Shown: positions 1,369-2,204 of the stretch, in pieces
How positions within the stretch are numbered: position 1 is the first letter of the stretch
Layout: the number at the start of each line of letters is the position of its first letter
IMG/VR virus record: IMGVR_UViG_2695420613_000016
DNA length: 4,170 nucleotides
Origin: a virus
Taxonomy: Duplodnaviria > Heunggongvirae > Uroviricota > Caudoviricetes
Direction: 5' to 3' (one strand)
The notes under the pieces: generated by a model
Seen by the model: only the letters and a program-made list of their open reading frames with translations
The model's database searches: none
Told to the model about the DNA's origin: nothing
Made by a program: the position numbers and the translations under genes

Positions 1369-1907
1369 CTATTGTTGAACTGGATTAAACCAGTAATTCT
1401 CTATTGCTCTTATTGTTACCATCGGATGATTGCCGGGGGTTATTTTAAGTTCGGGAGGAAAAGGCTCTCCATCAGCAGCCATCATTGAGTATGTGAAATC
1501 CGCCGACGCAGTCCCTTTCATGATAATTCCGAATTTTTCAAGTAATGAGAGCAGTTCCGGTAATCCTGTGTCATCTGAATAACTTTCCTCATAGAAAGAA
1601 GCGATTGCCGCAGGAGATGACAGTTCTCGCTCTGCAATTTTTTTGTAGTTTTCCAGAATTCTTTTTTTGAATACTTTTCCTCGACATGAAAACCCATCAC
1701 CGAGGCAATCCGCTTTGCAGTTTCTTCAGTATTCTGGTTGTTTGTTACCGAAACAGAGTACAATCCGGTAAACGCATCGCGCACATTACGAGCCATATTA
1801 TCAATGTATTTCTTCGTTGCAGATTCTAATTCAACTTCGTTCAGACGTTGGTGAAGTGCATGTGCTGCAATTTCCTGGATTTCTTTTAGTAAATCTTTAA
1901 ATTCCAT
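1369..1907 (-). pseudogene. Hypothetical ~179-aa protein interrupted by an apparent -1 frameshift at a 7-nt homopolymer; as sequenced the in-frame ORF is 1518..1907 (129 aa)
   Basis: N-terminal frame from ATG 1907 (RBS GGAG 6 nt upstream) reads MEFKDLLKEIQEIAAHALHQRLNEVELE... Offset by -1, a second frame is open from 1725 to a TAG at 1371..1369 and reads protein-like (RILENYKKIAERELSSPAAIASFYEESYSDDTGLPELLSLLEKFGIIMKGTASADFTYSMMAADGEPFPPELKITPGNHPMVTIRAIENYWFNPVQQ) with no start codon or RBS of its own. Two plus-strand T7 runs (1662..1668 and 1638..1644) lie in the overlap. Confidence 0.45.
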
Positions 1908-1918
1908 CTTTAACTCCG

Positions 1919-2047
1919 TTAGTCGTTAGATTTTGCCGAACTGGAAAGCGCCTGTTTAAACTCACTGAAGCTGAGAGCTTCCTCGCCTTCGGCAAGGCCT
2001 TCGAAGTATTCTTCGTAAGCCTTTTCCATGATTGTGTCGAAATCCAT
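1919..2047 (-). CDS. Small acidic hypothetical protein (42 aa; MDFDTIMEKAYEEYFEGLAEGEEALSFSEFKQALSSSAKSND)
   Basis: Hand-translated; below the ORF-track cutoff. ATG at 2047..2045 with AGGTGA about 5 nt upstream, lying 1 nt after the stop of the upstream 51-aa gene; its stop sits 11 nt before the start of the 1907 gene. Operon-like packing. Confidence 0.4.
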   Translation of the reverse strand: MDFDTIMEKAYEEYFEGLAEGEEALSFSEFKQALSSSAKSND

Positions 2048-2048
2048 A

Positions 2049-2204
2049 TCACTCACCTGAGTTTCTTTCCAGCCAGCGACGGGCACCATTTTCGGTTTTA
2101 AACGTTTTGCTTTTGGTATACGTCATCGCGGTGAATGTACCGTCCTGGTTGGGAAACACGCCGTACACCAGAGATTCGTTGTTGCCAAGATCGATAGTAT
2201 CCAT
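2049..2204 (-). CDS. Small prophage protein (51 aa from ATG at 2204; ORF track extends to a TTG at 2243), possibly YdaF-like
   Basis: ORF track 2049..2243. Internal ATG at 2204..2202 has GAGG 5 nt upstream; the TTG start lacks an RBS. First gene downstream of the OL-like operator. YdaF resemblance is recalled from size and position in Rac, not verified. Confidence 0.5.
   Translation of the reverse strand: MDTIDLGNNESLVYGVFPNQDGTFTAMTYTKSKTFKTENGARRWLERNSGE

Follow-up and report, generated by a model that had tools for sequence, protein, structure and literature searches.

What do the first genes of the early-left operon in a lambdoid prophage of Escherichia coli encode, and does any of them act on the host? 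This question is raised by a 4,170-nucleotide stretch of tailed-phage DNA (IMG/VR record IMGVR_UViG_2695420613_000016; hereafter the window), in which three small, tightly packed genes occupy positions 1369-2204 on the minus strand. A first-pass annotation, made from the letters alone, had placed them where lambdoid phages carry kil, exclusion and anti-restriction genes and had singled them out as the likeliest site in the window for an uncharacterised phage-host or anti-defence function. Here we present evidence that the cassette is very probably the promoter-proximal segment of a dicBF-type early-left operon, with a leftward promoter (PL), in a cryptic lambdoid prophage of O157:H7/Shiga toxin-producing E. 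coli (STEC) type; that its first two genes are ydfA and ydfB, which are conserved and non-toxic; and that the module formed by its third gene, which we call gene X, has decayed. Both the flagged genes and the operon are already known, the names ydfA and ydfB having been overlooked at the first pass. We regard the reading of the operon's structure as well supported; the functional part of our account we infer.

Identity of the first two genes and of the operon

The three cistrons lie at 2204-2049, 2047-1919 and 1907-1369, with a single nucleotide (position 2048) between the first two and 11 nucleotides (nt; 1908-1918) between the second and third, and each has a Shine-Dalgarno sequence of its own (GAGG, AGGTGA and GGAG, in gene order); in all of these respects the first description was accurate. 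The first gene (2049-2204, minus strand; ATG at 2204, stop at 2049) encodes a 51-residue DUF1391 protein (PF07151, E = 1.7e-28, 98.5 bits against a cut-off of 27.3) that shares 100% amino-acid identity with YdfA of E. coli K-12. The product of the second (1919-2047, minus strand), an acidic 42-residue protein with a net charge of -8.5, matches phrog_2061 (E = 3.5e-27) and is identical to K-12 YdfB at 41 of 42 residues, the last residue alone differing; at the DNA level, window positions 2241-1924 are 97.5% identical to the Qin prophage of K-12. Pairwise dN/dS (the ratio of nonsynonymous to synonymous substitution rates) among six ydfA alleles ranged from 0.05 to 0.24, indicating that the protein is under purifying selection, and YdfA residues are kept across genera. 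Homologues of YdfB in Salmonella, Cronobacter and Citrobacter conserve the core MDFxTIMEKAYEEYFEGLAEGEEALSFSEFKQAL. The family matches for ydfA and ydfB, the selection on ydfA and the cross-genus homologues of ydfB together indicate that these are real genes and not chance open reading frames (ORFs).

The dicBF operon of Qin has the order ydfA-ydfB-ydfC-dicF-dicB-ydfD (PMC5069750, PMC10448788), and the window follows it closely. As in Qin, ydfA comes first behind a repressor gene and an operator, with a promoter of the repressor-controlled type, and ydfB comes second after the same 1-nt spacing. Downstream on the same strand lie the DicF small RNA (758-809; Rfam RF00039, 76.9 bits against a gathering score of 48), the gene for the cell-division inhibitor DicB (384-572; NF049927, 123.7 bits against a cut-off of 100, and annotated as such in RefSeq) and a ydfD-like DUF1482 gene (196-387; RefSeq annotation, together with a by-eye alignment to K-12 YdfD), after which an exonuclease gene comes next in full genomes. 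Given the identity of ydfA and ydfB and the presence of DicF, dicB and the ydfD-like gene downstream, we conclude that the cassette is the front of a dicBF-type operon. The expectation of kil and exclusion functions was therefore sound for the operon, in which such activities exist, but misplaced within it, as they are those of DicF and DicB, outside the flagged interval.

The window departs from Qin in two places. Qin carries DicA/DicC immunity, whereas the window carries a PaaR-PaaA-ParE system together with YdaS/YdaT, and the third cistron is not ydfC but the frameshifted and unrelated gene X, accompanied by a convergent ORF for a zinc-ribbon-like protein (1146-1331, plus strand; 61 residues here). 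Homology to Qin covers window positions 2241-1924 and 1087-14 and is interrupted between 1924 and 1087; gene X and the K-12 ydfC region are not homologous in DNA sequence, and the X protein bears no resemblance to the printed sequence of YdfC.

The claim that the cassette starts an early-left operon directly downstream of an operator of the left-operator (OL) type was borne out by the operator repeats. The half-site ACAATAAAAAACTGT is repeated at 2386-2435, a region that comprises an OL-type operator pair (inverted repeat I1) and a PL-type promoter, with a minus-strand TTGACA inside it, and a further inverted pair, with half-sites of 100% identity, is found at 3426-3466, in the interval from the repressor gene to the cro-like gene. 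Because the repeats stand at both the OL and the right-operator positions, the OL-like operator is real. Between it and ydfA is an untranslated leader (2205-2385, minus strand), within which homology to Qin begins at 2241, and an analogous PL/OL arrangement has been established experimentally in the prophage CP-933P (PMC8630535). By analogy with these systems, a CI-like repressor bound at the OL operators (2386-2435) would keep the operon silent in a lysogen, and derepression would give rise to a single leftward transcript carrying ydfA, ydfB, gene X, DicF, dicB and the ydfD-like gene.

The gene order that we describe is not peculiar to this prophage, and the proposed check of its conservation gave a positive answer. 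Some part of 1300-2480, mostly ydfA plus ydfB, was matched in 4295 of 5426 complete E. coli genomes (about four fifths), at up to seven places per genome, and ydfA/ydfB are also found in phage genome records such as PhiR42_1, Tritos, HannyBb and mEp460. The second gene is missing from some otherwise intact operons, ATCC 8739 being a published example (PMC5069750). In E. coli E105 (our locus L004, 1429-2642) an IS3-family element is inserted in ydfB, flanked by ydfA and by the A7 allele of gene X described below. A more distant parallel is the early-left region of the Rac prophage of K-12, whose order is racR-ydaG-ydaF-(sieB)-KilS-kilR-ydaE-racC-recE: here too a DUF1391 protein, YdaF, is encoded near the start of the operon, and beyond it lie an accessory gene in the opposite orientation and then genes for a small RNA, a division inhibitor and an exonuclease. 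Rac differs, however, in having ydaG before ydaF, a different inhibitor (KilR) and small RNA (KilS), and no gene of the X family; nor did we find similarity between the window's zinc-ribbon ORF and Rac YdaE.

Searches for function and published phenotypes

Consistent with the first-pass annotation, which could assign a function to none of the three products, our family, PDB-sequence and structure searches gave no role for any of them. Searches of Pfam (E <= 10), NCBIfam and PADLOC left YdfB, gene X and the 61-residue ORF without a family of known function and gave only DUF1391 for YdfA, and the matches in PHROGs were confined to families of unknown function. Among the PADLOC-DB defence profiles, YdfA gave a 13.7-bit match to a fragment of AbiEi, and YdfB, X and the 61-residue ORF gave none. 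Structure searches, including one of the BFVD database, yielded no significant match from which a function could be read.

The PDB sequence search with YdfA returned chance-level matches only, one of them a "head decoration protein" at E = 0.38. Several phage genome records (for example PhiR42_1, L005 3985-4194) label YdfA/DUF1391 a "head-DNA stabilization protein D". This label looks like a propagated misannotation, the sole support that we found for it being the chance-level similarity at E = 0.38, from which it may have originated. A plasmid-borne "ydfA" in a paper on the IbfA plasmid was considered as a relative and set aside; going by its pUA1135/R64 operon context alone, we regard it as a separate gene of the same name.

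The tests by expression and exclusion that had been proposed for the cassette have, in effect, been published for K-12. When Plac was placed before ydfA and both dicF and dicB were deleted, induction left growth, viability and morphology normal, with neither a growth defect nor filamentation attributable to ydfABC (PMC5069750). The operon's protection against lambda-vir was lost on removal of dicB alone, which brought lambda-vir plating near control (PMC6832061). These phenotypes concern YdfA, YdfB and, instead of gene X, K-12's unrelated YdfC. Published K-12 work thus shows that none of these three proteins is toxic or accounts for the exclusion of lambda. In papers from 2023 and 2024 (including PMC10448788), ydfABC are still given as being of unknown function.

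Against this background we weighed the possibility that the cassette encodes an active host-takeover or anti-defence function, with YdfA and/or YdfB neutralising a host defence or a competing phage right after derepression. Such a role would suit the immediate-early position behind PL, the wide occurrence of the region in E. coli genomes and in phage records, the purifying selection on ydfA and the strong acidity of YdfB, and neither protein has a rival known function. Against it stand the lack of similarity to the defence families of PADLOC and of any significant structural match; the K-12 results, in which, ydfABC being retained, exclusion of lambda-vir maps to dicB and the toxic effects to dicB and dicF; the existence of otherwise intact operons without ydfB; and the fact that gene X is broken here. 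On balance we consider an active host-takeover or anti-defence function unlikely. The designation of the cassette as the likeliest site of an uncharacterised function consequently stands in part: no function was found for its products, but two of the genes already have names and the third has decayed.

A narrower proposal sees in YdfA a small regulator that would bind specific DNA sequences through the fold of AP2 and integrase N-terminal domains and so tune transcription of the early-left region or of the host. The AlphaFold 2 model of YdfA consists of a three-stranded sheet and a C-terminal helix (mean predicted local distance difference test score (pLDDT) of 79), and its matches in BFVD include HNH, GIY-YIG and integrase proteins that bear such modules. 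Yet profile comparison with an AP2 domain (AtERF1) by hhalign gave a probability of 3%, Pfam gave no AP2 match even at E <= 10, and the net charge of YdfA, -1.5, is unlike that of the basic AP2 domains. We therefore regard this as a doubtful identification with little chance of being right.

Alternatively, the cistrons might matter chiefly as RNA, as a translated 5' part of the DicF precursor that shields it from Rho and RNases, with peptides that have no function. In keeping with this idea, DicF is processed from a long transcript that begins with ydfA, levels of ydfA RNA depend on RNase E and RNase III (PMC10448788), and no phenotype of the proteins is known. Against such a scheme stand the strength of purifying selection on ydfA at the protein level, the conservation of YdfA and YdfB residues across genera and the acceptance of completely different genes in the third slot. 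We hold an RNA-only role to be very improbable.

Decay of gene X and its convergent partner

Gene X was recognised at the first pass as frameshifted, and alignment to intact homologues and to their DNA now confirms this and locates the shift at an A-tract at 1638-1644 (A7 on the coding strand, T7 on the plus strand). The frame-0 ORF (1518-1907, minus strand) has 129 codons and consists of a conserved N-terminal helical domain and, after codon 90, an out-of-frame tail; the remainder of the gene, which encodes the C-terminal domain, continues in the -1 frame (1369-1637, minus strand) and includes a 50-codon ORF (1369-1521) that some pipelines call. In RefSeq the 129-residue frame-0 ORF alone is annotated, as the hypothetical protein WP_000394511.1, without a flag for disruption. 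Intact homologues are single-frame proteins of 177-186 residues, and alignment to them shows frame 0 to be right as far as "...EFWKTTKK", with the switch of frame at the next run, 1638-1644. Another run, at 1662-1668, was excluded as the site by the same alignment. At the DNA level, the intact alleles (loci L006, L008, L009 and L010) carry A8 where the window carries A7, and restoring a single A yields a 179-residue protein identical at 168 of 179 positions to the protein P0001.

The A7 form is exact in 384 of the 386 complete E. coli genomes that have this allele, in serotypes spanning O157:H7, O103, O121 and O111, and A8 is found in none of them. Phase variation at the A-tract was considered and rejected, as no length variation was seen among the 386 genomes. 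The A6 form of one protein cluster (P0011) stems from assemblies outside this set and may reflect a sequencing error in the homopolymer.

Two further substitutions affect conserved positions of the window's gene X. Pro7, which the family keeps without or almost without exception, is leucine in the window (P7L), and Arg163, invariant in all intact homologues, is methionine (R163M, AGG to ATG). The convergent partner is damaged as well. This ORF, which has a CPxC...CPxH pattern, matches phrog_10133 and lies between gene X and DicF, is truncated after codon 61 by a change of TCA to TAA at 1329-1331 (C to A at 1330; S62stop), as judged against loci L006, L008 and L010. At loci where X is intact, the convergent ORF has 80 codons and overlaps the end of X by 20 nt, which would correspond to an end at 1388 in the window. 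Taking together the single A lost from an A8 tract of gene X, the replacement of two invariant residues and the premature stop in the convergent ORF, we judge the gene X module of the window, from its sequence, to be dead or dying. Such a decayed allele offers little prospect of an active function in the prophage.

We considered whether the A7 tract might instead be a recoding site, at which slippage of the ribosome or of RNA polymerase produces both a 129-residue protein (frame 0) and a 179-residue one (via the -1 frame). The tract reads A_AAA_AAA in frame 0 (1644-1638), a perfect X_XXY_YYZ heptamer such as is found in programmed -1 frameshift genes (dnaX and the transposase genes of the IS3 family); a -1 slip there recreates the exact TTKK-IAER junction of the intact homologues, the -1 frame is open as far as the native stop, and the A7 form is fixed in 384 of 386 genomes across several serotypes. 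The A7 copies are, however, at least 99% identical to one another, so that fixation says little and an open -1 frame is expected in any case. In addition, gene X lacks the conserved two-frame arrangement and the stimulator of the programmed genes: the more distant homologues all keep a single frame, having A8 or, in L003, no A-run, and no stimulatory RNA structure was found downstream of the tract (fold z = -0.92). The P7L and R163M substitutions and the nonsense codon in the partner ORF also point to decay. Recoding at this site thus appears extremely unlikely, and we favour loss by a simple deletion.

At 1518-1521 (minus strand) the TGA stop of the 129-codon ORF overlaps, in an ATGA, an ATG that corresponds to Met130 of the intact protein. 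Termination followed by reinitiation could therefore yield the 50-residue C-terminal fragment (P0242); no Shine-Dalgarno sequence precedes this ATG. Many other X-family proteins in the databases (P0243, P0244, P0263, P0299 and P0309) are short and have tails that are apparently out of frame. Frameshifts and truncations of this gene accordingly seem to be common across prophages and not specific to O157.

Contents of the third slot

A profile search of 1.84 billion representative proteins found 83 relatives of gene X at E <= 0.001, nearly all of which match only residues 1-60. This region corresponds to a 55-residue N-terminal domain with the motif MEFKDLPxxIQxIAAxxL...LARxVRxAFxxLY, modelled as a helical hairpin at a pLDDT of about 85-93. 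The domain occurs alone in phage proteins of 50-70 residues and also fused to several unrelated C-termini, including that of a common 212-residue family. The C-terminal domain of gene X is nearly an orphan, with one distant relative of 119 residues among the same 1.84 billion representatives. Its model has a pLDDT of about 40-60, which renders fold matches there meaningless. In BFVD, the structure search with gene X returned only uncharacterised N-domain proteins of 50-52 residues, and the PDB sequence search with gene X returned nothing.

X-family genes occupy the same slot in other prophages, and in those with a called or annotated ydfB the gap before the X-family gene is again 11 nt; in all of them a convergent small ORF comes next, ahead of dicB. 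The 212-residue "Ybl81"-type proteins of phrog_1363 and phrog_2151 resemble gene X in their 55-residue N-terminal helical domain, in their place after ydfA/ydfB and in the convergent small ORF that comes next, but their C-terminal domains are unrelated to that of gene X. The order repressor, DUF1391, (ydfB), X-family gene, convergent small ORF, dicB, DUF1482 and exonuclease recurs under at least four immunity types, with repressors that are DicA-type, PaaR-type or of other kinds. From the different X-family contents and their recurrence under different repressors we conclude that the ydfC slot is variable.

The contents of the slot look like two-gene inserts. Each cargo cassette would consist of a forward gene, in which the 55-residue helical domain would serve as an adaptor for a variable effector domain, and a small convergent ORF adjoining or overlapping the 3' end of that gene. 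It is conceivable, though unlikely, that the slot after ydfA/ydfB is a swap site for such two-gene cassettes and that these form a polymorphic module of phage-host conflict (defence, anti-defence or toxin/immunity), of which the O157-type copy would be dead, both partners having been lost together.

Source prophage and immunity region

Over positions 1-4043 the window matches, at 100% identity, a prophage that adjoins yccA in the chromosomes of STEC strains such as 2017C-4109. The remaining positions, 4044-4170, are the end of an IS1203/IS629 insertion sequence of the IS3 family, which disrupts a ydaT-family gene and leaves it with 109 codons in the window against 141 in strain 2017C-4109.

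The right half of the window is an immunity region. On the minus strand, a helix-turn-helix, CI-like repressor (2988-3389) is followed by a PaaA2-family antitoxin (2769-2960) and a ParE toxin (2482-2769, the ORF ending at 2482), and an intrinsic-terminator-like hairpin with a T-run (2448-2463, minus strand) closes this operon just upstream of PL/OL. Genes resembling ydaS and ydaT are divergent from the trio. The arrangement is like that of CP-933P/Sp12 of O157:H7 (paaR2-paaA2-parE2, with PL933P and OL1-3), which likewise combines a CI-like PaaR and a toxin-antitoxin pair with ydaS-ydaT in divergent orientation and, on the left, a second set of promoter and operators (PMC8630535). It is not the same system. 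The window's ParE aligns with the crystallised ParE2 (5cw7_B) at only 126.6 bits over 93 residues, with about two-thirds identity in the alignment, which marks it as a paralogue of the published CP-933P system, and the window's prophage adjoins yccA. O157:H7 reportedly has two PaaR-PaaA-ParE-type systems (PMC4803016), and the repressor, PaaA and ParE of the window probably represent the other of the two.

Discussion

Our analysis places the flagged cassette at the head of a known operon, with two conserved genes in front of a decayed third. Four points weigh against this account or temper it. The K-12 phenotypes on which we rely for the absence of toxicity were negative at one expression level, with one phage (lambda-vir) and for growth in rich medium. 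Transcription, repression and processing in the window's prophage are read across from K-12 Qin and CP-933P. For ydfB there were too few substitutions for a test of selection. Finally, the 129-residue product of gene X retains the N-domain, and standalone N-domain proteins of 50-70 residues occur in other phages, so that "dead" may be too strong a word for X.

YdfA and YdfB would be conserved small cytoplasmic proteins of the immediate-early class, produced first when the prophage is derepressed. Our best guess as to what they do, one that we infer and no more, is that they are small binding modulators of a host or phage macromolecule, for which YdfA would supply a three-strand-plus-helix domain and YdfB an acidic helical peptide.

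As a discovery the result has little value: descriptions of ydfA, ydfB and the beginning of the dicBF operon go back to the 1980s, with renewed study from 2016 to 2023, and we have identified them again. New is a correction to the annotation of STEC genomes, in which the seemingly intact 129-residue RefSeq protein is a frameshifted allele of a 179-residue gene and the partner ORF is truncated. New also is the suggestion that the ydfC slot may be a variable cargo site with a constant N-terminal domain. As for YdfA and YdfB, they are y-genes of unknown function in a region matched in most complete E. coli genomes; because they are so common and are always the first to be made when such prophages are derepressed, they are fair targets for work on small proteins.

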